Shown here one piece after another: positions 23,442 through 59,785 of a stretch of 64,000 nt of DNA (within the stretch, counting starts at the first letter, position 1; every line of letters starts with the position of its first letter). Source of the DNA: an uncultured virus (IMG/VR IMGVR_UViG_3300025015_000024) (taxonomy: Duplodnaviria; Heunggongvirae; Uroviricota; Caudoviricetes); the IMG/VR virus record IMGVR_UViG_3300025015_000024, positions 1-64,000 of that record; one strand, given 5' to 3'. The notes below the pieces were generated by a model. It saw only the letters and a list, made by a program, of their open reading frames with translations. It had not been told where the DNA came from and searched no databases. The translations under genes were made by a program, and so were the position numbers.

Positions 23442-23508
23442 TTCATTTTATACTTGTTTATTTTAATTATTTTACTTACTTTTGTATCTTGAAAGTATTT
23501 ATAATAAA

Positions 23509-23580
23509 ATGAAAAACATAAATTTACATAATCTCCCACAGCTACCCAGTAATAAACATTGGGGTGGAAAACTTATGTAA
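23509..23580 (+). CDS. Leader peptide 1, MKNINLHNLPQLPSNKHWGGKLM (tRNA array 1 attenuator)
   Basis: Follows TACTTTTG (23477) and TATTTATA (23496); control codons CTC CCA CAG CTA CCC (L-P-Q-L-P). Confidence 0.8.
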   Translation: MKNINLHNLPQLPSNKHWGGKLM

Positions 23581-23607
23581 AAAAATTAAAAAAATACAAT
23601 AGATTAT

Positions 23608-23647
23608 AAACCCTGATGTTCAATAAAAAAGTCATCAGGGTTTTTTT
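23608..23647 (+). terminator. Attenuator terminator 1
   Basis: AAACCCTGATG/CATCAGGG-T7; its 5' arm can instead pair with leader segment AACATTGGGGT (23555-23565). Confidence 0.85.
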
Positions 23648-23666
23648 ATTGATAAAAAATTAAAAT

Positions 23667-23738
23667 ATGGTGTTAGTTCAGAGGCAGAACGCTACATTTG
23701 GGATGTAGAGGTCGAGATATCATAATTCTCACACCATA
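23667..23738 (+). tRNA. tRNA-Pro(UGG)
   Basis: Cloverleaf; anticodon arm CTACA-TTTGGGA-TGTAG. Confidence 0.85.
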
Positions 23739-23755
23739 CAAAAAAATTAAAAAAT

Positions 23756-23829
23756 ATTCCAGTATCCCAATTGGTAGAGGATATAGTATTAGAAACTATA
23801 AAGTGAGAGTTCGAATCTCTCCTGGAGTA
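23756..23829 (+). tRNA. tRNA-Leu(UAG), short variable loop
   Basis: ATAGT-ATTAGAA-ACTAT; T arm GAGAG-TTCGAAT-CTCTC. Confidence 0.8.
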
Positions 23830-23830
23830 C

Positions 23831-23904
23831 TACCGGATCTTCTAATTTTGGCAGGAAAGCACCCTTTGAAGGTGATAATATAGGTTAGATCCCTACTCTG
23901 GTAA
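23831..23904 (+). tRNA. tRNA-Gln(UUG)
   Basis: Acceptor TACCGGA/TCTGGTA; CACC-CTTTGAA-GGTG. Confidence 0.75.
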
Positions 23905-24008
23905 CTACAAAAATTAAAAAAATATTAGATAATACTTGTTTATTTCAATTATTTTACTTACCTTTGTATTCTAAATATCTGAATTAATAACTTAAAAACC
24001 TAAAAAAA

Positions 24009-24215
24009 ATGAAAGATAAACCACAAAAGCCGAAATTGAATACTACTGTTGTTGGCGGTAGTTTTTATTGGGTTAGACCATTTCAAGGAGATGAATTTGA
24101 ACCTGCAAAGGCTAGAGATAGATATGAGAATGGAGAGCTATATTTCTGCTTTACAAACGGTAGTGTGTTGGAAGTAGAGCGCGCTTGGGAGGTTGAGCCA
24201 TTAAATTTCAGCTAA
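24009..24215 (+). CDS. Hypothetical protein (cassette-like)
   Basis: Short, GC-richer ORF containing GTTGGC and ending in GCTAAC. Confidence 0.55.
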   Translation: MKDKPQKPKLNTTVVGGSFYWVRPFQGDEFEPAKARDRYENGELYFCFTNGSVLEVERAWEVEPLNFS

Positions 24216-24270
24216 CGGTTTTGGGATTGCTGTCAGGTTTCTTACGGATTAACAACTAAAATATAATTAT

Positions 24271-24510
24271 ATGAACGAAGAATTAAGAGTGATATCACAA
24301 AGCTATTGCGGAATGACACCGAAAGATAAAGGATGCAAAACTTGGGCTGAGATGCAACAGAAAATGGCAGATGAATTGGAATGTGTAGTAAAAAATTATA
24401 TTGTCCAAGCAAATGTTAGCGGACACTTGTGCCAATGTGGAAATCCGATTGCCAGAACGGAGTGCGATGATTGTTTAGACAATAGAATTAGATGCAAGTT
24501 AGAAAATTAG
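24271..24510 (+). CDS. Hypothetical protein with Cys-rich C-terminus (cassette-like)
   Basis: CQCG...CDDC; internal GTTAGC. Confidence 0.5.
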   Translation: MNEELRVISQSYCGMTPKDKGCKTWAEMQQKMADELECVVKNYIVQANVSGHLCQCGNPIARTECDDCLDNRIRCKLEN

Positions 24511-24592
24511 GTACAATTTCCGCTAACGCATCGGAGATTTATGAAGGATTTTTTACGACTTAAACTACAAATTTAAAAATATAAAAAACACA

Positions 24593-24835
24593 ATGACAAA
24601 AGAAGAATTGATTACAAAGCAACAACTGGAAATAGAGCAGTATCAAATTGCAATAGAAGAAAACAAAAAACTGCTGAAAAAGATAAAACTAAATTTCATT
24701 GCGATAGGGATGCCGTTAAATGATAACCTATTGCAATTTGATAAGAAGCAGATAAAATGGTGCTTGGAAACATTAGAAATGATTGAACAAATTAACTGTA
24801 CTGTGCTTGACTATGAGGGTGTGTGGGCGGGTTAA
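24593..24835 (+). CDS. Hypothetical protein
   Basis: IGMPLNDNLLQF motif; ORF in the array. Confidence 0.6.
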   Translation: MTKEELITKQQLEIEQYQIAIEENKKLLKKIKLNFIAIGMPLNDNLLQFDKKQIKWCLETLEMIEQINCTVLDYEGVWAG

Positions 24836-24928
24836 AAAGTTTGCGTATAAGTAGGGGATTGTCGCAATATTATTGATTTTTTAAAATATTTTACTTATAT
24901 TTGTACTTTGAAACTATTTATTAAGAAA

Positions 24929-25009
24929 ATGAAAAACTGGTTAAACATATCAATTCATAGTAATAGTCGTAATATTATACGACCTGGAAGGGGTATGTTT
25001 ATACAATAA
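24929..25009 (+). CDS. Leader peptide 2, MKNWLNISIHSNSRNIIRPGRGMFIQ (tRNA array 2 attenuator)
   Basis: Follows TATATTTG (24896) and TATTTAT; 12 of codons 3-16 are read by the downstream tRNAs. Confidence 0.85.
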   Translation: MKNWLNISIHSNSRNIIRPGRGMFIQ

Positions 25010-25030
25010 TCATTTTTAAAAGATATATAA

Positions 25031-25065
25031 AAAACCCCTTGGATTAAGTTTTTAAGGGGTTTTTT
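25031..25065 (+). terminator. Attenuator terminator 2
   Basis: AAAACCCCTT/AAGGGG-T6; leader segment AAGGGGT (24988-24994) competes for ACCCCTT. Confidence 0.85.
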
Positions 25066-25070
25066 AATTT

Positions 25071-25144
25071 TGGTCTGTAACTCAGAAGTTTAGAGTGCCA
25101 AGCCGTTAACTTGGAAGCCGGGATGGCAGAATTCCCCAGACCAG
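25071..25144 (+). tRNA. tRNA-Asn(GUU)
   Basis: CCAAG-CCGTTAA-CTTGG; acceptor TGGTCTG/CAGACCA. Confidence 0.8.
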
Positions 25145-25160
25145 CTGGAAATATAAAAAA

Positions 25161-25244
25161 GGAAAAGGACTGGCATGGACGAAGAGATAGTCTTGAAAAC
25201 TATTGTGTGTAAAAACATCGTGAGTTCGATTCTCACCTTTTCCG
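25161..25244 (+). tRNA. tRNA-Ser(UGA)
   Basis: ATAGT-CTTGAAA-ACTAT, long variable arm, G73. Confidence 0.8.
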
Positions 25245-25258
25245 CTTTTTTAAAAAAC

Positions 25259-25329
25259 AGGTTCTTGGTGTAATGGCAGCATCTGAAATTCCAAACTTCA
25301 GGGTATGGGTTCGAATCCTATAAAACTTG
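25259..25329 (+). tRNA. tRNA-Trp(CCA)
   Basis: TGAAA-TTCCAAA-CTTCA; GGTTCGAATCC T arm. Confidence 0.75.
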
Positions 25330-25330
25330 C

Positions 25331-25416
25331 GGAAAATAAACCAATCAGGGTATTGGGCCTATTTGCTAAATAGTGCGTTCTGTAAAAAGAATGTGTTTCA
25401 AATACTCTGTCCTCCG
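25331..25416 (+). tRNA. tRNA-Ser(GCU), divergent
   Basis: CTAT-TTGCTAA-ATAG with a long variable arm; several acceptor and T-stem mismatches. Confidence 0.6.
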
Positions 25417-25427
25417 CAAAATTATAT

Positions 25428-25500
25428 TGACCAGTAGCTCAATTGGTGGAGCAACATTCTGATGAAATGAAGGTCGAAGGTTCAAATCCTTCCTGGTCAA
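25428..25500 (+). tRNA. tRNA-Ile(GAU)
   Basis: CATT-CTGATGA-AATG; canonical D and T arms. Confidence 0.8.
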
Positions 25501-25509
25501 CAAAAAACT

Positions 25510-25582
25510 ATTTTCTTAGTTTAACTGGATAAAATATTTGGCTACGAACCAAAAGATGAGAGTTCGAATCTTTCAGAAAATA
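25510..25582 (+). tRNA. tRNA-Arg(ACG)
   Basis: TTTGG-CTACGAA-CCAAA. Confidence 0.85.
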
Positions 25583-25597
25583 CATTATAATTAATAT

Positions 25598-25672
25598 GGT
25601 GCTATTGTTGTAAATTGGTGAGCATAGAAAACTGTGAATTTTCAGGTAAAGGTTCAATTCCTTTATGGCACC
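25598..25672 (+). tRNA. tRNA-His(GUG)
   Basis: GAAAA-CTGTGAA-TTTTC; encoded G-1:C73. Confidence 0.85.
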
Positions 25673-25680
25673 CAATAATC

Positions 25681-26373
25681 TTAATTTAATAATTCAAAAA
25701 CTTCTTTTATTCCTTCACTAGCTTTTTTATTAATATAAGTAATTTCCATTCCAATTTTACTTAAACTTTTAACTGGGTTTGGATCAATAAAAAATACTTC
25801 ACAAGATAATTTTATATAAGTTAACATTTGAAAACAATAATGGATAAATAAAGAAGTTCCAATTATTATTAAATAATCACATTTTTCAATTGTTTTATAT
25901 GATTCTTCAATATTACAAGGATATTCCCCAAACCAAACAACATGAGGTCTTAATTGTGAGCCATTTTCACATTTATCACCCAACTTTATATCATTATAAC
26001 CACAATCATATATTAAATCTTCATCTGATGAGCTTTGAGATTTTGTAAGTTCCCCATGAATGTGAATAACATTTGAAGAGCCACCCCTTTCATGTAAATT
26101 ATCAACATTTTGAGTTATCACGGTAACATCAAAATTATTTTCAAGTTCTGCAATTAATTTATGCGCCAGATTTGGTTTTACATTTTCCAGTTGCCTTCTT
26201 CTTTCGTTATAAAAATCTAAAACTTTTTGTTTATCTTTGTGCCATGCACTTATTGTTGCAACATCATCTATTTTATGGTTTAACCATAAACCATTTTTTC
26301 CTGTCCTGAATGTTGGGATGCCAGATTCCTCACTTACGCCCGCACCAGTAAAAACAACTATTTTCTTTTTCAT
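25681..26373 (-). CDS. cobB: Sir2-family NAD-dependent deacylase (CobB-like)
   Basis: FTGAGVSEESGIPTFR, TQNVDNLHERGG, HIHG, RPHVVWFGE and IGTS motifs. Confidence 0.92.
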   Translation of the reverse strand: MKKKIVVFTGAGVSEESGIPTFRTGKNGLWLNHKIDDVATISAWHKDKQKVLDFYNERRRQLENVKPNLAHKLIAELENNFDVTVITQNVDNLHERGGSSNVIHIHGELTKSQSSSDEDLIYDCGYNDIKLGDKCENGSQLRPHVVWFGEYPCNIEESYKTIEKCDYLIIIGTSLFIHYCFQMLTYIKLSCEVFFIDPNPVKSLSKIGMEITYINKKASEGIKEVFELLN

Positions 26374-26434
26374 TTATTTGTTTTTTTAATAAATATTTAT
26401 AAATAAGAATATATTTATATAATGATATAATAAC

Positions 26435-27133
26435 ATGAAAGATCAAATATCCAGAATGAAAGAATTGATTAATTATAATATTAATTATGGTTATATTAAT
26501 GAAGAAATGGAAACTTCTGATAATTTTATAAATAATACATTTCAAGAATATAAAGAAAAAAATGCAATTGCAGTTGAGGTTAGCATTGATTCAGAAAATG
26601 ATGTTGATTACAGATTAGCACTTATATTAAGATTTACAAATGTTAGTGGATATGATGAATTAGTATTTTATTTTTCATTAATAGATAAAAATAATCAGTT
26701 TGTAAAAGGAAAAGAAAGTATTTATAATAGAGAAGAAGCAAATAAATATTTACCAAAAAAATTACAAGGTAGTATTTCTTTTTTTACTAAACTAAAAGAA
26801 ATGTTTAAAAAATTAATAAATATGGAAACACCAGATATATTTTTTATGGAAACATATGAAGATTTTATAAGTGAAAGATTATTAAATCCTTATAGAAATT
26901 TAATTCCATTAATATTGGAAAATGGATATCTTTTGGAAAAAGAAGGAATATCCCATGATAAAAAGAAATATTATTGGAAATTTGTAAAAAAAACAAATCA
27001 ACAAATAAAAGAAGATAAGGAATTTGAATATTTTATAAATAATTTTAAAAAAGATGATGAATATTGGGAAAAATTTAATAAAGAATCAAGAATAATTATT
27101 GAGAAAATGTATGGAAATAAAAAAATTATTTAA
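26435..27133 (+). CDS. Putative head-packaged protein
   Basis: N-terminal MKDQISRMKELINY...INE matches the scaffold C-terminus; preceded by TATTTATA. Confidence 0.7.
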   Translation: MKDQISRMKELINYNINYGYINEEMETSDNFINNTFQEYKEKNAIAVEVSIDSENDVDYRLALILRFTNVSGYDELVFYFSLIDKNNQFVKGKESIYNREEANKYLPKKLQGSISFFTKLKEMFKKLINMETPDIFFMETYEDFISERLLNPYRNLIPLILENGYLLEKEGISHDKKKYYWKFVKKTNQQIKEDKEFEYFINNFKKDDEYWEKFNKESRIIIEKMYGNKKII

Positions 27134-27136
27134 AAA

Positions 27137-28114
27137 ATGAAAACTTTAAAATCCGTTGGTGAGTTCCCAAATATAAGAAAAGGAGAAATCAAAAAAGGAA
27201 ATAATAATATCTTGTCTTCCCTCAAAATTAAAAATGATTTAAACAGAGATATTTGGGATGAAAATGATCAACTAAAAGAAAATATAAAAAAAAATCTTTT
27301 GGAAGTTGGAAAAGATTTCTTTGATTATCTTGAATTAACCACAGAAATTAAAGATATAATAATAACAGGTTCTCTTTCAAATTATAATTGGTCCAAATAT
27401 TCGGATATTGATTTACATGTTATTTTTGATTTTAATGATGTCAAAGAATCTGATGATATAGAATTTATAAAAGAATACAGCAATGCAAAAAAATCAATTT
27501 GGAATGATACCCACAATATAAAAATAAAAGGATTCGAGGTAGAAATATATGGGCAAGATAAAAATGAGGTTCATAAATCTAATGGTATTTATTCTGTTTT
27601 AAATAATAAATGGATAATAAAACCAATAAAAAAAGAATTTAAAGTTGACTATGAATTAATTAAAAATAAAGCAAATCAATTAATGAAAGAAATTGATAAT
27701 TTATCTTCTGATAATAATTTAATAAAAAAAATTGATAAGATTAAAGATAAAATAAAACGTATGAGAGAATGTGGTCTTGAACAGGGTGGGGAATATTCCA
27801 TTGAAAATTTAACTTTTAAAATGTTAAAAAGAAGTGGTTATTTAAAAAAACTAAATGATATTAAAAATAAATCTTATGATAATGAACTCTCAATTAAAGA
27901 AAAGTTAAATACAGAAGAATCTGATATGGGTCCAACTATTGGAGAACCAAAGGATAAACATGGATATGATGATTCTGGGAATGAAAATGCAATGGGTTGG
28001 TGGGGATTGGAAGGTGGTGGAAGTTCCGATTATTCCTCATCTTCCTTTGATTCAAGTTCCGATATTTTTGATTTAAAAGAATCATTAAAAAAAGAATTAA
28101 GAAAATATTTATAA
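27137..28114 (+). CDS. Pol-beta-like nucleotidyltransferase
   Basis: TGSLSNYNWSKYSDIDLH, VEIYGQD and GEYSIENLTFK motifs. Confidence 0.8.
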   Translation: MKTLKSVGEFPNIRKGEIKKGNNNILSSLKIKNDLNRDIWDENDQLKENIKKNLLEVGKDFFDYLELTTEIKDIIITGSLSNYNWSKYSDIDLHVIFDFNDVKESDDIEFIKEYSNAKKSIWNDTHNIKIKGFEVEIYGQDKNEVHKSNGIYSVLNNKWIIKPIKKEFKVDYELIKNKANQLMKEIDNLSSDNNLIKKIDKIKDKIKRMRECGLEQGGEYSIENLTFKMLKRSGYLKKLNDIKNKSYDNELSIKEKLNTEESDMGPTIGEPKDKHGYDDSGNENAMGWWGLEGGGSSDYSSSSFDSSSDIFDLKESLKKELRKYL

Positions 28115-28142
28115 CTTTTCTTTTTATGTAATATTTATATAA

Positions 28143-28265
28143 TGAAGTTTGTTTAAATTGGTTAATAAAATAATCAATAAAATATTAAAAACCCAATACC
28201 ATTCATTTTTTTCCAATATTAATCAATTGGCAAACTTCAAAATGGGTGTGAGGGTTTTATATTTT
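28143..28265 (+). promoter_or_regulatory. Structured leader upstream of the HNH endonuclease
   Basis: Interleaved inverted repeats 28143-28167/28217-28239 and 28180-28209/28239-28264. Confidence 0.6.
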
Positions 28266-28284
28266 TTTAAAAAAATAAACTTAT

Positions 28285-29298
28285 ATGATAATAACAAAAT
28301 TTATAAAAATAAAAATTGGGGGTGGAAATATAAAACATTTTAAAAATTTAGGATATAAAATAAAGCGATTGGATATTATTACAATACCTATTGAACACCT
28401 ACAAAAAGGAAGTCATCAAAAGATTAAAGTAAAATGTGATGTTTGTAATATAGAAAAAGAAATAGAACATAGATTATATTTAAAAAATACTAAAAATTAT
28501 ACTATTGAATATTCTTGTTCTCAAAAATGTGCTTATAATATAGGTAAAAATCAAAAAACTTGTTTAAAAAAATATGGAGTGGAATTTACATCTCAAATAA
28601 AAGAACATAAGGAATTAGTAATAGAAACATGGAATAACAAATCAGAAAAAGAGTTAGAAGAAATAAATAATAAACGTAATAATACTAAAAAAGAACTTTA
28701 TGGAGATAAGTATTATAATAATATGGATAAAAATAAACAAACAAAATTAAAAAACCATGGAGATGAAAATTATAATAACAGAAATAAATTTATAAAAACT
28801 TGTTTAAAAAAATATGGAGTAGAAAATGTTTTTCAAGTGGAAGAAATTAAAGAAATATCTAACCAAACTATATTAAACACTTATGGTGTTAAACATGTCA
28901 TGCATTCAGATAAAATTAAAAATAAAGCATTTGAAACTAGATATGGAATAACTCATGAAAAATTTATTGAAAGATTATCTGATTTCTTAAAATATAGAAA
29001 AAAAATTTTAAAAATAACAAATCAGCAATTATTATTTTTATTAAAAAATTATAATAAAAGAGGAAATACTAAAATAAAAGGATCTTATCATATTGATCAT
29101 AAATTTTCAATTTTTGAGGGGTTTGTACAAAACATATCTCCACACATTATCGGTAATATAGTTAATCTTGAAATGTTAACTTGGGAAGATAATTGTAGTA
29201 AACATACTAAGTGTTCATTAACAAAAAAAGAATTGTTTAATTTATATGACAATAAAAATAAAATATTGAAACAACTAGAAAAAGAATATAAAAAATAA
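28285..29298 (+). CDS. Free-standing HNH homing-endonuclease-like protein
   Basis: VKCDVC and CSQKC zinc motifs, KTCLKKYGV repeats, C-terminal YHIDHK...NLEML...N.SK. Confidence 0.75.
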   Translation: MIITKFIKIKIGGGNIKHFKNLGYKIKRLDIITIPIEHLQKGSHQKIKVKCDVCNIEKEIEHRLYLKNTKNYTIEYSCSQKCAYNIGKNQKTCLKKYGVEFTSQIKEHKELVIETWNNKSEKELEEINNKRNNTKKELYGDKYYNNMDKNKQTKLKNHGDENYNNRNKFIKTCLKKYGVENVFQVEEIKEISNQTILNTYGVKHVMHSDKIKNKAFETRYGITHEKFIERLSDFLKYRKKILKITNQQLLFLLKNYNKRGNTKIKGSYHIDHKFSIFEGFVQNISPHIIGNIVNLEMLTWEDNCSKHTKCSLTKKELFNLYDNKNKILKQLEKEYKK

Positions 29299-29354
29299 TA
29301 AAATATAAATTTTTTTCTATTTAACTAATATTTATAATAAAAATATAAAAAATT

Positions 29355-30248
29355 ATGCCAAATTATTCAGAACAATATTTTAATCAAGATGCAGGGCAAC
29401 CTGCAGGTTTTTCTGATCAGGACAGAACAATTATAAAAGAAATTGAAGTTAGTGGGGATTCCACCAATAAAAAGTACATGGCCCAGCTTGTTGTTGTAAG
29501 GGGTGCTGGGGTTTCTCTTTCTACAGGAGATATTAATGTGGAATTATCACATTCAACCGATAGTGTTAGATTGGGAGATGCAACCACATTAACAAAAGTT
29601 GCTACTGGTGGATTTCTACTTGTTTCTGGGCAAACGGAAATAAAAAATGTTTCAACTGCTGCTGGCGGATTTTTACTTGTTTCTGGGCAAACATCAATAA
29701 AAGATGTTGCAGTTTCTGGCAGTAGTTTACAGGTAATTTTGACTGATAATGAAGGTATGATCGGTTCTGTTGTGGGAAAATCTAAAAAACCACAAATTTC
29801 CATAACTCGCCCATCCAATACTACTACCTATTCGATTTTGGATACAATTAATTCTGGAACTACCGTTATGGAAAGATTTAATATTGCCAGATCAAATAAC
29901 AAACTAGTGTGGTGTTTGGGGGGACATATGTCAAGTTCCGTTTCCGCAGCAACTTCTTTAAATTGTGATCTTCATATATTTTCATCTGGATTAACCGTAA
30001 CATCAGATAATACTTTATGGCAACCAAATGTTAATGAATTAACACATCATTTAGGTGTTGTATCATTTTCAAGTTGGAAAGTTTTAGGAAATAGATCTGT
30101 TTCTGAAGGTAGTATTGAACAACCTTTTCTTTTAACTCCAGACCCAGATAATCCCTCTTCCGTTTGGAGTGAACTTATTGCCAGAAATGCTTATGTTCCT
30201 TCAAGTGCCGAAATATTAACTGCCAGTTTGGATATTTCACAAGATTAA
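29355..30248 (+). CDS. Putative virion structural protein
   Basis: Gly/Ser/Thr-rich, duplicated GGFLLVSGQT, preceded by the late motif. Confidence 0.6.
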   Translation: MPNYSEQYFNQDAGQPAGFSDQDRTIIKEIEVSGDSTNKKYMAQLVVVRGAGVSLSTGDINVELSHSTDSVRLGDATTLTKVATGGFLLVSGQTEIKNVSTAAGGFLLVSGQTSIKDVAVSGSSLQVILTDNEGMIGSVVGKSKKPQISITRPSNTTTYSILDTINSGTTVMERFNIARSNNKLVWCLGGHMSSSVSAATSLNCDLHIFSSGLTVTSDNTLWQPNVNELTHHLGVVSFSSWKVLGNRSVSEGSIEQPFLLTPDPDNPSSVWSELIARNAYVPSSAEILTASLDISQD

Positions 30249-30287
30249 TCGGAAAAATTATTTGAATTTAAATTAAATATTTAAAAT

Positions 30288-30542
30288 GTGAAAAATAAAA
30301 TAATTAGATTAACAGAATCAGAACTTAAACAAATTATTGAACACCAGGTTTATTCAAATGTTTGGAAAAAGGATTTTTATGGATATATTAAAAGATTGAA
30401 GGGTTTAATTGATGGAATTAATAAATCATTTGATTCAATGGATGATATTTCTTTTGATGATGAGATTAAGGAAAACTTTATTGAGGATTTAAAAAATGTT
30501 GGAAAAATGGTTAAGATTTCTGTGGATAAATTGGAAAAATAA
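30288..30542 (+). CDS. Putative head-packaged protein
   Basis: IRLTESELKQIIE N-terminal motif. Confidence 0.65.
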   Translation: MKNKIIRLTESELKQIIEHQVYSNVWKKDFYGYIKRLKGLIDGINKSFDSMDDISFDDEIKENFIEDLKNVGKMVKISVDKLEK

Positions 30543-30564
30543 TTTTTAAAAATATAATTAACTA

Positions 30565-31293
30565 ATGAACCCCAGACTAAGAAAAACTCTTTTATTCAAT
30601 ACTAAGAAATTTAAGAATCAATATAGCTTTCTCTTTGATGGAATTAATGAATATATTGAAAGAAATAATGCAATAATCAATGGAACTCCTGCAACTTTTA
30701 GTGCGTGGATAAAGTTAAGTAGTTTAAATTTAGTTCAAAGAATAACCACAATAAATCAAAAATCTACTACTACTAATGTATTATCAATCTTTATTGATGC
30801 AAATAATAAGGCCAATGCACAGCATTTTGATGTGGATGGTGTAGCGGCATTAAGTACAACTGTTTTGACAACCAATACTTGGTATCATATAGTCGGGGTT
30901 TTTACAAGTGATTCTTCAAGAACTATTTACGTAAATGGGGTTTCGGAAAATACAAATACAACAGTTCAATCCGCAATGACTGGATTAGATTACACATCTT
31001 TTGGTTATATTGCTTGGACCACTAATATTCAGTTTTTTAATGGAAATATTGATGAAGTAGGTTTTTTTAACACCAATTTAACCGCAGCACAAATAACTGA
31101 AATATATAATAATGGCAAGCCCAAAGACTTAAAAAAACATAGTATGGTAAATAATCTTGTTAGCTATTTTAGAATGGGAGATAAATCAACATGGGATGGA
31201 ACAAATTGGACATTAGTGGATCAAAAAGGAACTAATAATGGAACAAGTGTGAACATGGAATATAATGACAGGAGTCTTGATGTAAAATTATAA
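30565..31293 (+). CDS. LamG/concanavalin A-like domain virion protein
   Basis: FDGINEY, TFSAWIK, WYHIVGV, IYVNG and FNGNIDEV motifs. Confidence 0.85.
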   Translation: MNPRLRKTLLFNTKKFKNQYSFLFDGINEYIERNNAIINGTPATFSAWIKLSSLNLVQRITTINQKSTTTNVLSIFIDANNKANAQHFDVDGVAALSTTVLTTNTWYHIVGVFTSDSSRTIYVNGVSENTNTTVQSAMTGLDYTSFGYIAWTTNIQFFNGNIDEVGFFNTNLTAAQITEIYNNGKPKDLKKHSMVNNLVSYFRMGDKSTWDGTNWTLVDQKGTNNGTSVNMEYNDRSLDVKL

Positions 31294-31341
31294 TGATAAA
31301 AAATAAATTTTTAACTTAATATTTATAAATAAAATAATAAC

Positions 31342-31608: not shown

Positions 31609-31671
31609 TTAATTTTTAAAAAAAATAAACATATATTTATAATAAAATATAAACTTTTTTAAACTTACGTA

Positions 31672-31679: not shown

Positions 31680-31725
31680 ATAAAAAAATAAGAAATAAAA
31701 AATAATAATATTTAAATAAAAAATT

Positions 31726-52082: not shown

Positions 52083-52171
52083 AAAAAATATACAAAAAAC
52101 TGAACTTTTTTAAACTAACGTATATTTATTAAAAAATAAAGATAATATTTTACATACAATATTTATAATTT

Positions 52172-53440
52172 ATGGCAGAAAATAAAGAAAAAAAACAGTC
52201 CATTCTTGAACAAGCCTTGTTAGAAGCAAGCGAGATTCAAAAAACGGCTGAAAGCAATGCAAAAGAAATACTGGCAAAACAAATGAGACCAGAAATTGAA
52301 CGCATAGTTAAAGAATCAATAGAAAAAGAAGATTCTGTTGATGAAACAAAAATGGAAGAAAGTCATGATCAACAACCAGTTGATGAAGAAAAAAATAAAG
52401 TCAAGGAAAATGAGGACGAAGACAATGATTTAGAAGATATTGATTCTGAAAAGGTGGAAACCGATTTAGAAGATGATATTGATTCTGAAAAAATAGAGGA
52501 TAAAGAACCTGAAGAAATTTCTGATGATGAAGAAGGTATAGAACAAGTTGATCTTACCAGTACTCCTGATGAAGATGTTGTCAAAGTTTTCAAAAAAATG
52601 ACAAAAGATGATCAAATTGAAATTGAAAAAGATGGAGATTCGATCAAAATAAAAGATGAGGACAAAGAATATCGTATTGAATTAAGTGAATCTAAAAATA
52701 AAGGAAAACTTAATGAAGATGGTGTTTGTGAAGAATGTCCTGATAACGATTTGACAGATGATGATAGTGAAATGATTTATGAAATTGAAATAGAAGGAAA
52801 AGATAATGTTTCTGAAACTGATGGGGTATCAGAAAAAGTGACTAAAGATGAAGAATTGGAAGAAACTTTTAATGTTACTCATGCAGAAGGAAGAAATGTA
52901 ACATCAAAACCCCAAAATTTCAATGTTAGAAGTAGACCAGGAGATACCAGATATAAAAAACTTTATCAGGAAGCTGCTGGAAAAAATAAGCAACTTGTTG
53001 AGAAATTTAATTCTCTAAGAGGCAAAGCAGTAAAAATTCTTAATGAAAATAAAGAATTAAAAGAGTTTCAGACAAAACTCAAAAATGCTGTTGTTGATAT
53101 GAGAGGAAAACTTAATGAGGTTGCATTATTCAATTCTAATTTGGCTTATGCCAATAGAATAATGGCAGAAGAAACAACCACTAGGAAAGAAAAAATTGAT
53201 ATGATTCAAAGATTTGATAAAGTCAAATCTATTAAAGAATCAAAACAACTTTATAAAACACTTCTTAGTGAATTGAAAAAAGAGCCAATTAAAGAATCTG
53301 TTGAAAAGAAAATAACAAAAACTTCAGAGTCAAGCTCATCCAAACAAATAAATGAATCAAAAGTTTATTCTGATCCTCAATTAGAGAATCAAATAAAAAG
53401 GATGAAAGACTTAATGAACTATTCCACGAATGGAAAATAA
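52172..53440 (+). CDS. Prohead scaffold/core protein
   Basis: Acidic and coiled-coil, between protease and MCP; LNEVALFNSNLAY; C-terminal QIKRMKDLMNY. Confidence 0.85.
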   Translation: MAENKEKKQSILEQALLEASEIQKTAESNAKEILAKQMRPEIERIVKESIEKEDSVDETKMEESHDQQPVDEEKNKVKENEDEDNDLEDIDSEKVETDLEDDIDSEKIEDKEPEEISDDEEGIEQVDLTSTPDEDVVKVFKKMTKDDQIEIEKDGDSIKIKDEDKEYRIELSESKNKGKLNEDGVCEECPDNDLTDDDSEMIYEIEIEGKDNVSETDGVSEKVTKDEELEETFNVTHAEGRNVTSKPQNFNVRSRPGDTRYKKLYQEAAGKNKQLVEKFNSLRGKAVKILNENKELKEFQTKLKNAVVDMRGKLNEVALFNSNLAYANRIMAEETTTRKEKIDMIQRFDKVKSIKESKQLYKTLLSELKKEPIKESVEKKITKTSESSSSKQINESKVYSDPQLENQIKRMKDLMNYSTNGK

Positions 53441-53469
53441 TTAATAATAAAACTTAAAAAATAATAACT

Positions 53470-55164
53470 ATGGGACAAATTTTAAATTCAGGAGAAGTTG
53501 GAAATATTGGGTTGAGGCAACTCAAAGAACAACGAGAACTGATAACACAAAAATGGACTAAATTAGGTCTTTTAGAAGATCTAAAAGGTCATATAAAAGA
53601 TAATATTGCTCAGTTGTTTGAAAATCAAGCATCTTACATGTTGAATGAATCAACAACCGCATCTAATTCAGGTGCGTTTGAAACTGTTGCGTTTCCTATT
53701 ATACGTAGGGTCTTTTCAAAATTGCTTGCTAATGAGATTGTATCAGTACAAGCTCTTAATTTACCAATTGGTAAACTGTTCTATTTGAATCCAAAAGTAT
53801 CAACGAGAGTAGATACTGGTTCAACAGGACACACATCACCGGATGGTGCTTATTCTAATGCAGCCGATTTAACAGCTGGTTCAGGAACTCAATTTGAAAC
53901 TAAATCATTGTACGATAGTTTCTATGCAACCGCAAATAATGATGAGGGTACTTCTTTATTTGATAGAAGTAAAGGGGCATTCACATCAACAAATGCAGTT
54001 CTTACTGGTTCTACACCGCAATCTGGGGTAACTAAATTCAAAACATTTCAATTAACAGGATTTACAACTACAAGTGATGGTAAGTTGATTGGTCCTGCTG
54101 GTGTTCCTATGGACACTGAAGAATTTTTAGCTAGTCTAAAAGTTACGGCAGACCAAAATTTATCAGGCGGATCTGGTTTCCAAGGTTCAAGTATTACCGC
54201 AGGAGACCCAATTCCTTTCAGAGTTAAAACTCAACAATACGGAAGAGAAATTGTAAGTTCTAATGGTGTAATTGATGTTGAGATTGATTTAACATATCCA
54301 GCAGCTAATGGTTATTCGGCATTTACATCATATGTTGATCAGGCTGGTACACCTTCAGCAACTAATAAAATTTTATTTACAGCTAACTACAGAACTTATT
54401 CTGATTTAGAACAAGATTCTGAAATGGCCGAAGTAACATTTAGTCTTGATGAAGTTACGGTATCTGTAACAACTCGTAAAATGAGAGCACAATGGACACC
54501 TGAACTTGCACAAGACGTATCAGCATTCCATAATATAGATGCAGAGGCTGAACTTACTGCATTGTTGTCAGAACAAATGGCAGCTGAAATTGACAGGGAA
54601 ATCCTTAGAGATCTTAGAAGAGGTGCAGCTTGGACATTACGTTGGGATTATAATGGTTTGAGAAACCAAACTACTCAGTATCACGGTACTCAGAAAGATT
54701 GGAATCAAACATTGTTAACCAAAATAAATCAAATTTCAGCTCAAATTCATAAAGCAACACTGAGAGGTGGAGCTTCTTGGATAGTTATATCACCTGAAAT
54801 TTCAGCAGTATTAGATGATTTGGAATATTTCCACGTATCAAATGCTGATCCTGAACAGGACAAATATAACATGGGTATTGAAAGAGTTGGATCTCTTGGT
54901 GGAAGATATCAAGTATATCGTGATCCTTACGCTCCAGCTAACACAATGTTAATTGGACATAAAGGAAATTCGATATTGGAAGCTGGATATATATATGCTC
55001 CATATGTTCCAATGCAATTGACACCTACAATGTATAATCCATTTGACTTTAAACCAATTAAGGGGGTAATGACAAGATATGCCAAGAAAATGATAAATAA
55101 CAGGTTCTATGGCAAGGTCTTCTGTGATGGATTAACAACTTTTGACCCAACTGAACTTAGATAA
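53470..55164 (+). CDS. Major capsid protein (T4 gp23-like)
   Basis: FPIIRRV, RKMRAQWTPELAQD, EIDREI, YAPYVP and GVMTRYA motifs; propeptide ending LNE. Confidence 0.96.
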   Translation: MGQILNSGEVGNIGLRQLKEQRELITQKWTKLGLLEDLKGHIKDNIAQLFENQASYMLNESTTASNSGAFETVAFPIIRRVFSKLLANEIVSVQALNLPIGKLFYLNPKVSTRVDTGSTGHTSPDGAYSNAADLTAGSGTQFETKSLYDSFYATANNDEGTSLFDRSKGAFTSTNAVLTGSTPQSGVTKFKTFQLTGFTTTSDGKLIGPAGVPMDTEEFLASLKVTADQNLSGGSGFQGSSITAGDPIPFRVKTQQYGREIVSSNGVIDVEIDLTYPAANGYSAFTSYVDQAGTPSATNKILFTANYRTYSDLEQDSEMAEVTFSLDEVTVSVTTRKMRAQWTPELAQDVSAFHNIDAEAELTALLSEQMAAEIDREILRDLRRGAAWTLRWDYNGLRNQTTQYHGTQKDWNQTLLTKINQISAQIHKATLRGGASWIVISPEISAVLDDLEYFHVSNADPEQDKYNMGIERVGSLGGRYQVYRDPYAPANTMLIGHKGNSILEAGYIYAPYVPMQLTPTMYNPFDFKPIKGVMTRYAKKMINNRFYGKVFCDGLTTFDPTELR

Positions 55165-55192
55165 TAAGTAAAGTAGTTCAAATTTAAACCAT

Positions 55193-55231
55193 AAAGGGGG
55201 GTCTGGATAATAAAAATTCAGATCCTTTTTT
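55193..55231 (+). terminator. Intrinsic terminator after MCP
   Basis: AAAGGGGGGTCTGGA/TTCAGATCCTTTTT hairpin with T-run. Confidence 0.75.
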
Positions 55232-55308
55232 ATGTTTATTCTAATTTAAGATTGACTTTAAACGGATTATATATTATATTTGTAATATAATTTAAAAATA
55301 TTATAAAA

Positions 55309-57432
55309 ATGAAAAAAACAACAATAACGAAAGAACAGGAAAAAGAAATTGTTGCCATTTATTCTTTAACAAATATTGGAACAGAACCATTATCATTAAG
55401 GTTTAGAATTAGTAAAAAAAGAATTAATCAAATATTTAAAAACTATAATATATCAAAAAAGAAAAAAGGTAATCAAATAACAAATAATATTATAGAAATA
55501 AAAGAAAATTATAAAAAAATAAGAAGTATTTCAAGTAATAATTTTATAGTTAAGTGTAAAAAAACAAACAAAGAATTTAATGATTATAATAATAAGTCGG
55601 GAATATTAACAATTCATTTAAAAAAAATATTTCCAAACATAAAAATACCTTCAAATTATAATAAAAAATTATTTTTAAAAGAAAATGGATTTCAATGGCA
55701 TGAACAATATTTTAACATTTTATTAAAAAAAGAAAAACAAACAAGAAAATGTAAATATTGTGATTGGGAGACAACAGATATCAAAAATAAAACTGGGTGT
55801 TATGAAATTCATTTAAAAAATACTCATAATAAAACCATAAATGAATTTATAAAACAATTTCCAGAAGAAATAAAATATCACCCCAACTTCAAAAAAATTA
55901 AGAAAAGAAATGAATCATTCAAAGATACAGATAGTTATATTATTTGTAAAATATGTAACAAAAAACTTAAAAAATTAACAAATACTCATTTTATTCAACA
56001 TGGAGTAACTGTAAAAGAATATAAAGAAAAATATTCTATATTATCAACAAATTCTTTAAATAGTACAAAAAATCAATCAAAAATAACAACAGAATATAAT
56101 TTAAAACATGGGACGACATTTCCCAATAAAAAATCTTCATATGAAATTGATTTTGAAACAAAATTAAAAAAAATAAATATTAAATATATAACACCATTTA
56201 TATATAAAGGAAAGAAATTTGATTTTTATTTGCCAAAAATAGATACGGTTATTGAGATTGATGGGGAAGTATTTCATAAAAATTATTTAGAGAACTTAAC
56301 AATAAAAACAATTCAAAACTCAATAAATGACTATAAAAAATCTAATTTAATCGGATATGATTTTAAATTTTATAGGATAAGATATAATAAAAATGAAATT
56401 TTTAATTCAGAAAATGAATTAATCAATTTAATTATAAATAATTCTTATACTCCAAATTATTCAATTTCCTATAACCAAAAAATAATATTAAAAGAATATT
56501 TCAAAAATTATATTGAAACAAAGGGAAAATCAAAATTGGAAAAATATATTCCTCTTTTATTGAAATTTATAAGAACATTTCATTCAGAGTTTCCATATCC
56601 AGAAAATAATGATAATTTAAATGATATTATTAACACTATTAAGAATTATGATTTGTCCAGGGTATATGATGAAAACACCAACACTTTTAGTAATATTTGT
56701 TATTCAATAGGAAATACATACTTAAAATCATTATTTAAATCATACTGGGATTGTAACTATAAAGGAAATGAATCACCAATTCATGCATGGAACAACGATA
56801 CCACAATGAAAAGAATTATAAAATATAGAATTGGATGTAATGATTCTAATGAAATATTTGATTTTTCACTAAAAAACCTAATAAAGGGTTTATCTGCCAA
56901 CAGAAATACAATATCATTTTTTAAACCTATATTAGCAGCTTCAATATATAATCATTATTTGCCAAAAAACATTGAAAACCCTATAGTTTTTGATCCTTGT
57001 TGTGGATTTGGTGGAAGAATATTGGGGTTTAAATCTTTGTTCCCACATGGAAAATATATTGGATTAGAACCAAATAAAAAGATATATGGCGAATTATCAA
57101 TACTATCTTCAAAATTTGAAGATAATAATGAGTTATATAATTGTAAATTAGAAGATTTTAATAAAAATATAAAATATGATATTTGTTTTACAAGCATTCC
57201 TTATTTTGATTTAGAGAATTATAATAATTATTTTGATTATAATTCATATAGTCAATGGAAAAAAGAATTTATTGATAAGTTACTAACCTATAATAAGTTA
57301 ATTATTAATATGTCAGAAGAATTATGTAATAAATTGAATTTAAATAAATATATTGATTCTTATATAATAAAATCTCAATCTCATTTTGGAAATAAGGAAA
57401 AAGAAGTTATGATAAAATTAAACTTTTCATAA
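55309..57432 (+). CDS. Zinc-finger / PD-(D/E)xK endonuclease / DNA methyltransferase-like fusion
   Basis: CKYC..H..H and CKIC..H..H; FDFYLP..VIEIDGEVFH; FDPCCGFGGR; FTSIPYF. Confidence 0.75.
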   Translation: MKKTTITKEQEKEIVAIYSLTNIGTEPLSLRFRISKKRINQIFKNYNISKKKKGNQITNNIIEIKENYKKIRSISSNNFIVKCKKTNKEFNDYNNKSGILTIHLKKIFPNIKIPSNYNKKLFLKENGFQWHEQYFNILLKKEKQTRKCKYCDWETTDIKNKTGCYEIHLKNTHNKTINEFIKQFPEEIKYHPNFKKIKKRNESFKDTDSYIICKICNKKLKKLTNTHFIQHGVTVKEYKEKYSILSTNSLNSTKNQSKITTEYNLKHGTTFPNKKSSYEIDFETKLKKINIKYITPFIYKGKKFDFYLPKIDTVIEIDGEVFHKNYLENLTIKTIQNSINDYKKSNLIGYDFKFYRIRYNKNEIFNSENELINLIINNSYTPNYSISYNQKIILKEYFKNYIETKGKSKLEKYIPLLLKFIRTFHSEFPYPENNDNLNDIINTIKNYDLSRVYDENTNTFSNICYSIGNTYLKSLFKSYWDCNYKGNESPIHAWNNDTTMKRIIKYRIGCNDSNEIFDFSLKNLIKGLSANRNTISFFKPILAASIYNHYLPKNIENPIVFDPCCGFGGRILGFKSLFPHGKYIGLEPNKKIYGELSILSSKFEDNNELYNCKLEDFNKNIKYDICFTSIPYFDLENYNNYFDYNSYSQWKKEFIDKLLTYNKLIINMSEELCNKLNLNKYIDSYIIKSQSHFGNKEKEVMIKLNFS

Positions 57433-57475
57433 CTAACAACTATTTATATAAAAAAATAATTAAACTTAATAAATT

Positions 57476-57877
57476 ATGCCACTATTTACAGATATTTGTG
57501 GGGCGGTAGATCAATTTGAAAGTACGATTGCTAATGAAATTGCCACAATGACTACTCATGCCCAATTTTTAACAGCTGCTGACAATATGTCAAGTGGGAA
57601 AACTGATATGAATCTTCAATTATCAGGTACACTTGGTACTCATGTGACTAGATTATTAATTGACAGACTAACACTGGTTGAAGCAGATATGAGAAGGTTT
57701 TCTACAATGAAGGGTCTTGCTCAAAATATTAATCAAGTTCATGAAGTTTTAAGAGAGCATGCCAAAATTACGGCAGCAATTATCAGGGGTGGAACAAGAT
57801 GTGCAAATGGAAGTGGGACTTCTGCTGCTGATCAAAGATTTTATAAAGATACCATATTTAAAGAATTTGGCAGGTAA
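57476..57877 (+). CDS. Hypothetical late protein
   Basis: ORF preceded by TATTTATA (57441). Confidence 0.7.
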   Translation: MPLFTDICGAVDQFESTIANEIATMTTHAQFLTAADNMSSGKTDMNLQLSGTLGTHVTRLLIDRLTLVEADMRRFSTMKGLAQNINQVHEVLREHAKITAAIIRGGTRCANGSGTSAADQRFYKDTIFKEFGR

Positions 57878-57949
57878 TTAAATAATTTTTTTAATTAATC
57901 TATTGACTTTTTAGAATATTTTATTTATCTTTGTATTTATAATAATATA

Positions 57950-58030
57950 ATGAAACAGATAACGACATATTTTGGTGGAAATGGTGATGGCACAACTGAT
58001 GCGATAACCATAATGGCCAGATTATGTTAA
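57950..58030 (+). CDS. Leader peptide 3, MKQITTYFGGNGDGTTDAITIMARLC (tRNA array 3 attenuator)
   Basis: Follows TATCTTTG (57926) and TATTTATA (57934); F-G-G-N-G-D-G-T-T-D-A control region. Confidence 0.8.
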   Translation: MKQITTYFGGNGDGTTDAITIMARLC

Positions 58031-58051
58031 AAATATAAATAACAACTATAT

Positions 58052-58086
58052 AAAAACCCTGGCTAATAAAAAGTCAGGGTTTTTTT
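58052..58086 (+). terminator. Attenuator terminator 3
   Basis: AAAAACCCTGGCT/AGTCAGGG-T7; leader segment TGGCCAG (58014-58020) can pair with CTGGCTA (58059-58065). Confidence 0.85.
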
Positions 58087-58101
58087 GTTTATATGATAAA
58101 T

Positions 58102-58178
58102 GGTGATACAGCATATTGGTGCATGTTGCTTCCCTGTCACGGAAGAGATTGTCGGTTCAAATCCGTCTATCACCGCCA
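58102..58178 (+). tRNA. tRNA-Asp(GUC)
   Basis: CTTCC-CTGTCAC-GGAAG; G73 and encoded CCA. Confidence 0.85.
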
Positions 58179-58179
58179 A

Positions 58180-58252
58180 GGAACTTTGGTGTAGGTGGTC
58201 TGCACAACTGTTTGAAGCACAGTGGGTCTTTGTTCGATTCAAAGAGGTTCCA
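58180..58252 (+). tRNA. tRNA-Phe(GAA)
   Basis: ACTGT-TTGAAGC-ACAGT. Confidence 0.8.
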
Positions 58253-58272
58253 CAAGGTTATTCATTTTTACA

Positions 58273-59502
58273 TCAAACATTACATTTGAGTTCAAATGAT
58301 TTTACAAATTCAACTTTGTATGGGTTAAACCCTAACCCTATATTCCTTATGTTACTTATGAATTTTTCACATTCAGGAATTACTTTTGATTTTAACATTA
58401 TTCCAATTGCACCATTAACATCAGCATTTATTGTTTTGCCAATACTACTTAAAAATAAACCACGCTTTATTCTTTTGCCAAGATAAATTGCTTGTTTTTG
58501 TATCGGTTCAAATGCCAAATGGTCGCATTTACTGGTATAACTTTCTTCCTGCTCAACAAGTTTTATGCTGTTGAGTTCTAACTTATATTTTATTTTATCT
58601 ATAAGTTTGGCATGAGGGATAGAAACAAAATTCTGGTTATTACGGCTACCAATATTTATTTTCTTCTTCCAATGTTCATTTTTACCGATAACAACTGTCC
58701 CAATATTATACTTTAAACAGTATTTAAGAATGAAATCGCCTACCTGGTGCATTGCATTTTCTATCTTGTTATTCCTGTCAAAAGTTAATTTATTTATTCT
58801 GTTTGACGTCCCTTTATTACCAACATAACTCATTAACTTGGCTCGCTTTTTATTAAAATACGCATTGATGGATTTTAATCCTCTACCGTTGATAATGAAA
58901 GGATTATTACCGACATTATCTATTGCTGTGATAAGATTGTTTAATCCCAAATCAATGCTTAATACATTTTCTTCTTTTATTTTTTCATGTTTTACCTCCT
59001 TTTTTTCATAGACAACTTCTATTACAAAACAAGTTGCTTGTGGAATTATTCTCACTTGTGATATATTATCTACTTTTGTTTTTAATGGTTGAATATTTGC
59101 TTGTTTTGGAAAATGTATAAGTCCCCCTTTTAAATTAACTTGCTGATTAGTGAAAATGCAAATAGAATATCCAGCCTTATCTTTGTATTTTGGTTGCTTA
59201 GGGTTTCCTTTAAATTTGCTTGGGCATTTTTTATATTCTTTTAATGCTTTGAAATATGACTTCCAGTTCTTAAAAAGTAATTTTATTATTTGCTGCGATG
59301 TTTGTGCCGGCAATGCCCTATAATCTTCCTGGTTAAATTCAGCAAGCAATTTAGATAATTCATATTCCTCAAATTTCTGTATATTACCAAAAAATGCTTG
59401 CCGTTTGTGATAATTACAAAAATTATACAATCTGGCTGATTTAAAACAAATATCCTCTATTGCTTTATCGTTTATCCTAATATGTCGCTCTACGAGTTGC
59501 AT
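58273..59502 (-). mobile_element. tnpB: TnpB, intact, inserted inside tRNA array 3
   Basis: MQLVERH start; SIDLGLNN, EESYTSKC and NADVNGA motifs. Confidence 0.92.
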
Positions 59503-59621
59503 TATTTATATAAAACTTAAAGTTTTACACTTATAAATATCTTTCTAAAATAAAAAACTCAATAAAATGAATACATAAGAAATAAATAATATCAAAAATT
59601 ACTATTTATATAAGATAATGT

Positions 59622-59697
59622 GCATCAGTAGCTCAATTGGTAGAGCGCCGGTCTTCCAAATCGGAGGTTGTGGGATCATAGCCCATCTGATGCTCCA
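59622..59697 (+). tRNA. tRNA-Gly(UCC)
   Basis: CCGGT-CTTCCAA-ATCGG; U73 and encoded CCA. Confidence 0.88.
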
Positions 59698-59712
59698 GAT
59701 TAAATAAAATAT

Positions 59713-59785
59713 GGGGGTACATGTACCAAGGCTGGCGAAGAGCATTTGCAATGCTTTTGGGTGGATTGGATTTCCACTATCTCCA
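59713..59785 (+). tRNA. tRNA-Ala(UGC)
   Basis: GAGCA-TTTGCAA-TGCTT; G3.U70, A73. Confidence 0.8.

Follow-up and report, generated by a model that had tools for sequence, protein, structure and literature searches.

Candidate leader-peptide attenuators with array-matched control codons ahead of the tRNA arrays of an uncultured phage

Introduction

Leader-peptide attenuation of transcription is textbook knowledge for the trpL, hisL, leuL and pheL leaders and for the multivalent thrL and ilvGMEDA leaders, and the pheST operon is controlled by an attenuator with the Phe-rich pheM leader. In the attenuators of amino-acid operons, a short translated leader contains consecutive control codons, the helices 1:2, 2:3 and 3:4 exclude one another, an intrinsic terminator directly precedes the genes, and the position of the stop codon makes a ribosome that completes the leader block region 2. 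The three units described here share the sequence features of this layout. They lie in 64,000 nucleotides of an uncultured virus of the Caudoviricetes (IMG/VR record IMGVR_UViG_3300025015_000024; the whole of this stretch is called the window below), and each stands ahead of an array of phage tRNA genes. Judged from sequence, we give a probability of about 80% to the reading that they are ribosome-mediated transcription attenuators of the trp/his type, gating these arrays.

The phage units differ from the amino-acid operon attenuators in that they would regulate tRNAs, not enzymes, and their output would feed straight back on the signal. Their control runs span from three to about ten amino-acid species, and the units are phage-encoded, carry a Bacteroidota-type promoter, are without a Shine-Dalgarno sequence and show no similarity to the leaders in Rfam. 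The pheST/pheM system is alike in that a leader peptide controls a component of translation for the amino acid of its control codons; it differs in serving a synthetase protein gene and a single amino acid, on a bacterial chromosome. T-box riboswitches also sense the status of a tRNA with a codon-like specifier and switch between a terminator and an antiterminator, but they bind the uncharged tRNA directly by means of Stem I, a specifier loop and a T-box bulge, and no translation is involved. No match to the T-box family (RF00230) was found in the window at the gathering score, nor at E-values up to 1 over positions 21200-25700, and an Rfam scan of the window at the gathering score returned tRNA matches only, without any His, Trp, Thr, Leu or Phe leader family.

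When the His codons of the Salmonella his leader were swapped for Ser or rare codons, the attenuator reported the decoding speed of those codons: with Ser codons it responded to starvation for serine, and with rare Arg codons or Pro-Pro pairs it was de-attenuated (PMC4046918). This engineered his leader is a laboratory construct driving his-lac, neither natural nor placed ahead of tRNA genes. No account of leader-peptide or attenuator control of tRNA genes or of phage tRNAs was found in a literature search that left subscription journals largely uncovered. The new element suggested by the phage sequence would thus be a classical attenuator logic, known for amino-acid genes, applied to tRNA genes in a multivalent and self-correcting form.

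Results

Three promoter-leader-terminator units

The contig encodes 14 tRNAs in only three arrays, each of which is located behind a promoter-ORF-terminator unit (ORF, open reading frame; Table 1). The initial annotation had described one layout at three loci, consisting of a -7 TAnnTTTG motif, an ORF of 23-26 codons, an intrinsic terminator and a tRNA array, and all of these parts were found where it had placed them; a TATTTAT motif that it counted among the shared signals had to be dropped, as the window contains 129 copies of it against 103 expected. In the complete 76.8 kb contig, the combination of the promoter motif, an ORF of at least 20 codons and a terminator occurs three times, each time ahead of a tRNA array; a sequence scan detected 25 terminator-like hairpins in the same contig. 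The leader ATGs are positioned 24-26 nt past the -7 motif. The terminator stems comprise 11-13 bp followed by T-runs, with energies of -14.6 to -16.7 kcal/mol, and the distance from the T-run to the first tRNA is 16, 0 and about 10 nt in units 1, 2 and 3, respectively. Between leader and first tRNA, no TAnnTTTG motif able to serve the arrays was found at the three loci, and the tRNAs would therefore be made only by read-through of the terminators.

Leader codons correspond to the downstream tRNAs

With the codon usage of 68 phage ORFs as background, residues belonging to the amino-acid set of the leader's own array amount to 7 of 22 in leader 1 (expected 3.1, P = 0.029), 17 of 25 in leader 2 (expected 7.7, P = 1.6e-4) and 9 of 25 in leader 3 (expected 4.7, P = 0.033). 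Counted as codons decodable by the tRNAs of the array, the figures are 6 of 22 (expected 1.7, P = 0.006), 13 of 25 (P = 0.002) and 9 of 25 (P = 0.033). Every tRNA of each array, 14 of 14 in total, can decode one or more codons of the leader ahead of it. The chance that all tRNAs of an array are represented is 0.077, 0.00091 and 0.19 for leaders 1-3 (product 1.3e-5), as estimated from random ORFs of the same length drawn from the phage codon usage. Among the six possible pairings of leaders with arrays the true one is best: it matches 33 residues and 28 codons, and the second-best scores are 21 residues and 19 codons. The codon match proposed in the initial annotation holds for the window as a whole. 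The control runs make use of codons that are very rare in the phage, namely CTC, CCC, CGT, CGA, GCG and GGC, which occur 1-3 times per 1000 codons (CTC 1.4, CCC 1.8, CGA 1.6 and GCG 1.0).

The Leu-Pro-Gln-Leu-Pro core of leader 1 is flanked by Asn, Ile, His, Ser and Trp codons, which is the set of array 2. Leader 1 may have arisen from a leader like that of array 2, or it may be responsive to the tRNAs of both arrays.

The match extends to related phages

The same succession of promoter, ORF, terminator and array recurs in records of 340-360 kb (four, with terminal repeats) and in three shorter ones, as seen in a sample made up of the tRNA regions of whole records and 20 loci with the promoter word shared by their arrays. 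The leaders of these relatives read as inventories of their arrays: the run TTYTKQYQPKGGKPQGQ precedes tRNAs for Pro, Tyr, Gln, Lys, Thr and Gly, the run FEFSFEAAEDD those for Phe, Glu, Asp and Ala, the run LTLNLVLCLVVL those for Cys, Val, Leu and Met, and the run ISIHINSIMNWRRNSS those for His, Trp, Ser, Asn, Arg and Ile. A mixed leader, with W, R, A, V, G, T, E, D and Q, occurs in one genome whose only array is mixed.

Units were also collected by an automated rule, which takes a terminator at most 600 nt upstream of a tRNA together with the longest ATG-initiated ORF ending at most 75 nt before the stem. This yielded 28 units in 8 genomes, of which 16 keep the promoter motif and an ORF of at least 20 codons; the 12 dropped were mostly ordinary gene ends, along with one genuine-looking Cys/Leu leader without the exact motif and two ATG-less units of a 353 kb relative (G010). 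Of the 459 leader residues in these 16 units, which come from 8 genomes, 245 fall in the set of the own array (233 if the arrays of the window are limited to the ARAGORN calls). The initial annotation had suggested comparing leader codons with array anticodons in related phages against shuffled pairings, and the comparison turned out clearly in favour of the match. The true pairing ranks first in all four genomes that have at least two units (1/6, 1/24, 1/2 and 1/6), jointly 1 of 1728 arrangements. Between units, 212 of 623 residues are matched in the 23 non-redundant automated units, where shuffling gives a mean of 128, and 200 of 422 in the 16 promoter-filtered units among these 23, where the mean is 111; none of 20000 shuffles reaches the observed value in either set.

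Removal of two short spurious ORFs left a set of 14 units. Here, each of 19 amino acids (19/19) is commoner in leaders whose array has the cognate tRNA, and the match is confined to the reading frame: 196 of 403 residues are matched in frame (48.6%), compared with 67 of 389 and 85 of 389 out of frame (17-22%). At codon level, 173 of the 196 in-frame matches are decodable. Leader content also co-varies with the array within a family, since array 3 of the window has a Gly but no Glu tRNA behind a leader with four Gly and no Glu codons, and four homologous arrays that have Glu but no Gly tRNA follow leaders with 3-4 Glu codons. An ATG-initiated ORF with an in-frame stop near the terminator is kept in 16 of the 18 leader-type units of the relatives. 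In 39 of the 61 cases in which a control residue is replaced, the substitute is again a control residue; at the remaining positions the figure is 42 of 108. The peptide sequence is not conserved but its composition is, which fits a sensor of codon content better than a functional peptide.

Other ways of finding relatives were less productive. A synteny comparison covered 110 loci beside the same flanking genes and was set aside, as arrays were present only in four copies with 100%-identical flanking proteins. None of five 60-80 kb fragments of relatives (0/5) carried tRNAs, and in the 'phages' collection there was no close DNA relative; only single tRNA genes matched there, and the region of leader 3 matched nothing.

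Several relatives show additional features around these units. In three of them, the first tRNA of the His/Trp/Ser/Asn array is separated from the terminator by a conserved ORF of 57-62 amino acids (L147, positions 12394-12567, minus strand; corresponding positions in L141 and L149). This ORF starts with ME, contains RKLGSEK and has no match in Pfam, and the attenuator of these three loci appears to gate this small protein as well. L146 has two ORFs in a like position. A small conserved hairpin lies between promoter and leader ATG in L145-L147 and L157-L165; it is absent from the short 5' untranslated regions (UTRs) of the window.

Alternative RNA pairings and their geometry

In all three units the minimum-energy fold of the leader is a hairpin closed by an ACAUA/UAUGU stem (ACATA/TATGT in the DNA), with clearly negative z-scores (Table 1). 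In each unit the 3' part of the leader can pair alternatively with the 5' arm of the terminator, and both structures had been proposed in the initial annotation. Across the 14 units, the duplex between the 3' half of the leader and the 5' arm of its own terminator averages -11.06 kcal/mol, compared with -6.1 kcal/mol with the other 13 terminators and -3.84 kcal/mol for a control duplex formed with the 5' half of the leader. The own terminator ranks first in 9 of the 14 units and third or better in all of them, and none of 20000 shuffles reaches the observed value. In one genome GGATGAGA pairs with TCTCATCC, and in another AAGTTGAGT pairs with ACTCAACTT; the paired words thus change among homologues and yet stay complementary, which is covariation. 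The covariation of the helices, an analysis suggested in the initial annotation, was judged from the energies of own and other duplexes. For regions 1:2 the own combination gives -10.46 kcal/mol and combinations with another region 2 give -8.75 kcal/mol, a difference reached by 57 of 20000 shuffles; specificity is weaker here because the ACATA/TATG stem is common to nearly all leaders.

An unbroken run of control codons extends to a point just 5' of region 2. From the end of region 2 to the stop codon there are 7-12 nt in the window and 11-35 nt in the relatives, and from the stop codon to the terminator stem 21-34 nt in all 14 units. This geometry matches that of the trp and his attenuators (for the his mechanism, PMC4046918).

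No variants in leaders or terminators were present among contigs from four DNA runs. The only differences among those contigs, at 23973-23994, 24237-24241, 25042-25051 and 25206-25208, each come from a single low-depth contig. A look for RNA runs containing this DNA returned none.

tRNA arrays and neighbouring genes

The 14 tRNAs listed in the initial annotation are real by ARAGORN and Rfam together. Default ARAGORN called 8 of the 14 and missed six; Rfam added Pro and Gln, and relaxed ARAGORN added Ser(UGA), Ser(GCU) and Ala. tRNA-Asn was detected with 39.1 bits in the E-value mode of Rfam only. For Pro and Asn there was no ARAGORN call at any threshold tried, and their anticodons, UGG and GUU, were read off the Rfam alignments. 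Many of the tRNAs are atypical; in tRNA-Asn(GUU), position 33 of the anticodon loop is an unusual C and the T-arm is irregular.

Array 3 has the four tRNAs described earlier, but it is interrupted: a TnpB-like gene of 1.2 kb on the minus strand splits it between tRNA-Phe and tRNA-Gly. The encoded protein matches a PHROG transposase family (1.4e-37), Pfam OrfB_IS605 (8.6e-16) and a Cas12f1-like TNB domain (2.5e-8). Leader 3 nonetheless keeps codons for Gly and Ala. The same four tRNAs of array 3 are present, at identical spacing, in contigs whose flanking proteins are 100% identical. The homologous array of one relative (G014) has a Thr tRNA at its end, and a Thr tRNA may have been lost from array 3, perhaps along with the TnpB insertion. 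A gene of the Sir2 family (Pfam 5e-41) converges on array 2; relatives of its protein, at 40-58% identity, are encoded in many large viral contigs.

Table 1. Positions of the attenuator-like units, tRNA arrays and adjacent features in the window
Feature	Position	Strand	Details
Promoter, unit 1	23455-23484	+	-33 TTG 23455-23457; -7 TACTTTTG 23477-23484
Leader ORF 1	23509-23580	+	23 codons and stop (MKNINLHNLPQLPSNKHWGGKLM); control run CTC CCA CAG CTA CCC 23533-23547
Leader hairpin 1 (regions 1:2)	23523-23581	+	-15.9 kcal/mol, z -3.1
Region 2, unit 1 (CATTGGGGT)	23557-23565	+	pairs with region 1 or with terminator 5' arm (antiterminator); duplex with own terminator arm -12.1 kcal/mol, rank 1 of 14 terminators; truncated fold -13.9 kcal/mol
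Terminator, unit 1	23608-23650	+	intrinsic; stem 23608-23643, then T-run
Array 1	23667-23905	+	Pro(UGG) 23667-23738, Leu(UAG) 23756-23830, Gln(UUG) 23831-23905
Promoter, unit 2	24873-24903	+	-33 TTG 24873-24875; -7 TATATTTG 24896-24903
Leader ORF 2	24929-25009	+	26 codons and stop (MKNWLNISIHSNSRNIIRPGRGMFIQ); control run codons 3-18, 24935-24982
Leader hairpin 2	24942-25001	+	-22.9 kcal/mol, z -4.5
Region 2, unit 2	24983-24994	+	2:3 duplex -12.2 kcal/mol, rank 1 of 14
Terminator, unit 2	25031-25071	+	intrinsic; stem 25031-25063, T-rich tail to 25071; tRNA-Asn starts at end of tail
Array 2	25071-25673	+	Asn(GUU) 25071-25144, Ser(UGA) 25161-25245, Trp 25259-25330, Ser(GCU) 25331-25417, Ile(GAU) 25428-25501, Arg(ACG) 25510-25583, His(GUG) 25599-25673
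Promoter, unit 3	57903-57933	+	-33 TTG 57903-57905; -7 TATCTTTG 57926-57933
Leader ORF 3	57950-58030	+	26 codons and stop (MKQITTYFGGNGDGTTDAITIMARLC); control run codons 8-18, 57971-58003
Leader hairpin 3	57964-58028	+	-23.3 kcal/mol, z -4.6
Region 2, unit 3	58015-58020	+	2:3 duplex -10.1 kcal/mol, rank 1 of 14
Terminator, unit 3	58052-58091	+	intrinsic; stem 58052-58084, T-run; also reads as minus-strand terminator
Array 3, first half	58102-58253	+	Asp(GUC) 58102-58178, Phe(GAA) 58180-58253
TnpB-like gene	58273-59502	-	IS605 OrfB/Cas12f-like; inserted between tRNA-Phe and tRNA-Gly
Array 3, second half	59622-59786	+	Gly(UCC) 59622-59697, Ala(UGC) 59715-59786
Sir2-family gene	25681-26373	-	
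Possible tmRNA-like RNA	21475-21888	+	ORF-free; promoter 21269-21285

Source contig and promoters

The window is the first 64 kb of a viral contig of 76,837 bases with 25.3% G+C; its genes include those for a terminase, a portal protein and a T4-type major head protein. The closest cultured relative by capsid is Flavobacterium phage immuto, at 41% identity; this phage was considered as a model system and rejected, as its four annotated tRNAs (three of which matched Rfam) are without the promoter-leader-terminator layout. Protein relatives at about 45% identity include the 340-360 kb records with terminal repeats, which have 15-65 tRNAs, and fragments of these relatives of the size of the window are rated about 20% complete. 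Because of these two features, the contig is probably a piece of a jumbo phage.

The promoters of the three units are of a kind that we take to be that of Bacteroidota, with TTG, about 20 nt and TAnnTTTG. An extended promoter word, TTTTAYTTAYNTTTGTA, occurs in the window 10 times without mismatch, and 27 times if up to two mismatches are allowed, where 6.7 occurrences are expected. It is not specific for tRNAs, because ordinary genes are preceded by the same word. In G010, an RNA at L143 14514-14620 matches the Rfam family 'Bacteroidales small SRP' with 58.7 bits (gathering score 55.2), which fits a Bacteroidota host.

Another stretch of the window with a promoter of its own is located at 21475-21888. 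It has a 5' end resembling that of tmRNA and, at the 3' end, a tRNA-like T-arm and acceptor; the Rfam tmRNA match reaches 17.7 bits (E 3e-4), short of the gathering score, which is 47, and ARAGORN made no call. The upstream portion of its promoter resembles that of the promoter of leader 3. It is possible that this stretch encodes a tmRNA-like RNA.

Discussion

The initial annotation had read the three loci as codon-matched attenuators with 1:2, 2:3 and 3:4 helices, and this reading is now strongly backed in silico by the enrichment of matched codons, their frame-specificity, the conservation of the units and the pairing of leaders with their own terminators. The parts, the alternative pairings and the covariation in relatives are likewise direct observations; from them we infer leader translation, a coupling of translation and transcription in a Bacteroidota-like host, and how strongly and in which direction the units respond. 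According to this mechanism, a host-type promoter would fire and the short leader ORF would be translated while it is being transcribed. If decoding is fast, the ribosome would reach the stop codon, 7-12 nt past region 2, with region 2 either covered or paired again with region 1; the terminator (3:4) would then form 21-27 nt beyond the stop, and transcription would halt just before the first tRNA. If decoding is slow, the ribosome would stall in the central run of codons that are read by the tRNAs of the same array; the stalled ribosome would mask region 1, region 2 would pair with the 5' arm of the terminator (2:3), and the polymerase would read into the array. Since the products are the tRNAs that decode the control codons, each unit would constitute a negative-feedback loop keeping its tRNA set at the level that decoding needs, and the phage would probably make a tRNA set only when ribosomes read the codons of that set slowly.

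Several observations weigh against this mechanism. In the window alone, the residue match of leaders 1 and 3 is modest (P of 0.03). Leader 1 matches the amino-acid set of array 2 with 9 of 22 residues, compared with 7 of 22 for its own, and is specific at codon level only; the poor cross-matching claimed in the initial annotation therefore applies to the pairing as a whole, in which the true combination is the best of six, but not to this leader. Leader 3 has five Thr codons and no Thr tRNA downstream, its antiterminator (2:3) comprises only 6 bp, and the Gly and Ala tRNAs of array 3 sit 1.4 kb downstream, past the antisense TnpB gene. The terminators have A- and T-tracts and may also work on antisense transcripts. 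Among the relatives, two of the four G010 units keep region 2 and the terminator without an ATG-initiated leader, and one unit (L148) consists of a promoter and a hairpin ahead of Phe-Phe tRNAs, with no ORF. Homologous leaders differ by 43 synonymous and 169 nonsynonymous codon changes, which is about the neutral ratio and no independent proof of leader translation. Finally, homologous units share ancestry, so that the shuffles between units overstate independence; the pairing test within genomes and the frame control are unaffected by this.

The same loci can be read in other ways. Host bacteria use anticodon nucleases against phages, and phage tRNAs can replace the cleaved ones. The attenuators could, as the initial annotation had proposed, be counter-defence sensors, tuned to the loss of host tRNAs through anticodon nucleases or phage-induced decay, with replacement tRNAs made only then. 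The architecture would be the same, the phage-rare codons CTC, CCC, CGA and GCG in the control runs would make a sensitive stall site, and the C33 of tRNA-Asn is in keeping with the idea. Sequence, however, cannot distinguish a defence trigger from feedback on supply or from a reaction to amino-acid starvation; the units have no defence or anti-defence gene linked to them, and the simpler feedback between decoding and supply fits the same data. We therefore regard a dedicated counter-defence role as doubtful.

Much less probable is that the leader RNA binds tRNAs or another factor directly, in the manner of a T-box or other riboswitch, with the ORF being incidental. The two G010 units that keep the pairing between region 2 and terminator without an ATG would agree with such direct sensing, as would the codon changes that look neutral at the peptide level and the ACATA/TATG stem that is conserved as sequence across leader families. 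A codon match that is so much stronger in frame than out of frame would not be expected of an incidental ORF, nor would an ATG-initiated ORF whose in-frame stop lies at a fixed distance from the terminator and which is kept in nearly all leader-type units; moreover, the leaders are too short for a T-box Stem I and antiterminator bulge, and the Rfam scan of the window gave no T-box or other riboswitch match. The leaders might, at the extreme, be unrelated small genes that encode peptides and have terminators of their own, with the tRNAs produced by leaky read-through and the codon match owed to chance or a bias in composition. The general phage promoter, the apparently bidirectional terminators and the P-values of about 0.03 for leaders 1 and 3 taken alone would suit this explanation, which is nevertheless disfavoured and very improbable: the true pairing is favoured by permutation within genomes as well as between units, the prediction comes out right for all 19 amino acids, changes in the antiterminator are matched in its own terminator, and it is the composition of the peptide and not its sequence that is conserved, with control residues replacing one another.

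With trp/his-type attenuation as the preferred explanation, a wider interpretation can be put forward tentatively. Bacteroidota jumbo phages might keep a modular, codon-resolved watch on the tRNA pool, by means of a near-complete set of tRNAs in about four arrays, each gated by a multivalent leader of its own, which may be roughly those for His/Trp/Ser/Asn/Ile/Arg, for Phe/Glu/Asp/Ala, for Cys/Leu/Val/Met and for Pro/Tyr/Gln/Lys/Thr/Gly. In this speculative interpretation, the phage would replace exactly those tRNAs that are removed by defence nucleases or by its own host shut-off, with rare and poorly read leader codons setting the trip point.

Why phages carry tRNAs, and how these are controlled, is an open question, and in the present case the control element is readable from sequence. 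If the attenuator reading is true, these units would be the first case found of tRNA genes under leader-peptide attenuation, and the first attenuator found whose output directly relieves its own signal. The leader sequence would then tell what the phage measures, which is the decoding speed of the codons that its tRNAs serve, and the hypotheses of supply and of counter-defence for phage tRNAs would become testable with simple reporters. The leaders would furthermore provide a rule for predicting which tRNAs are co-regulated, as well as compact codon-specific sensors for engineering.

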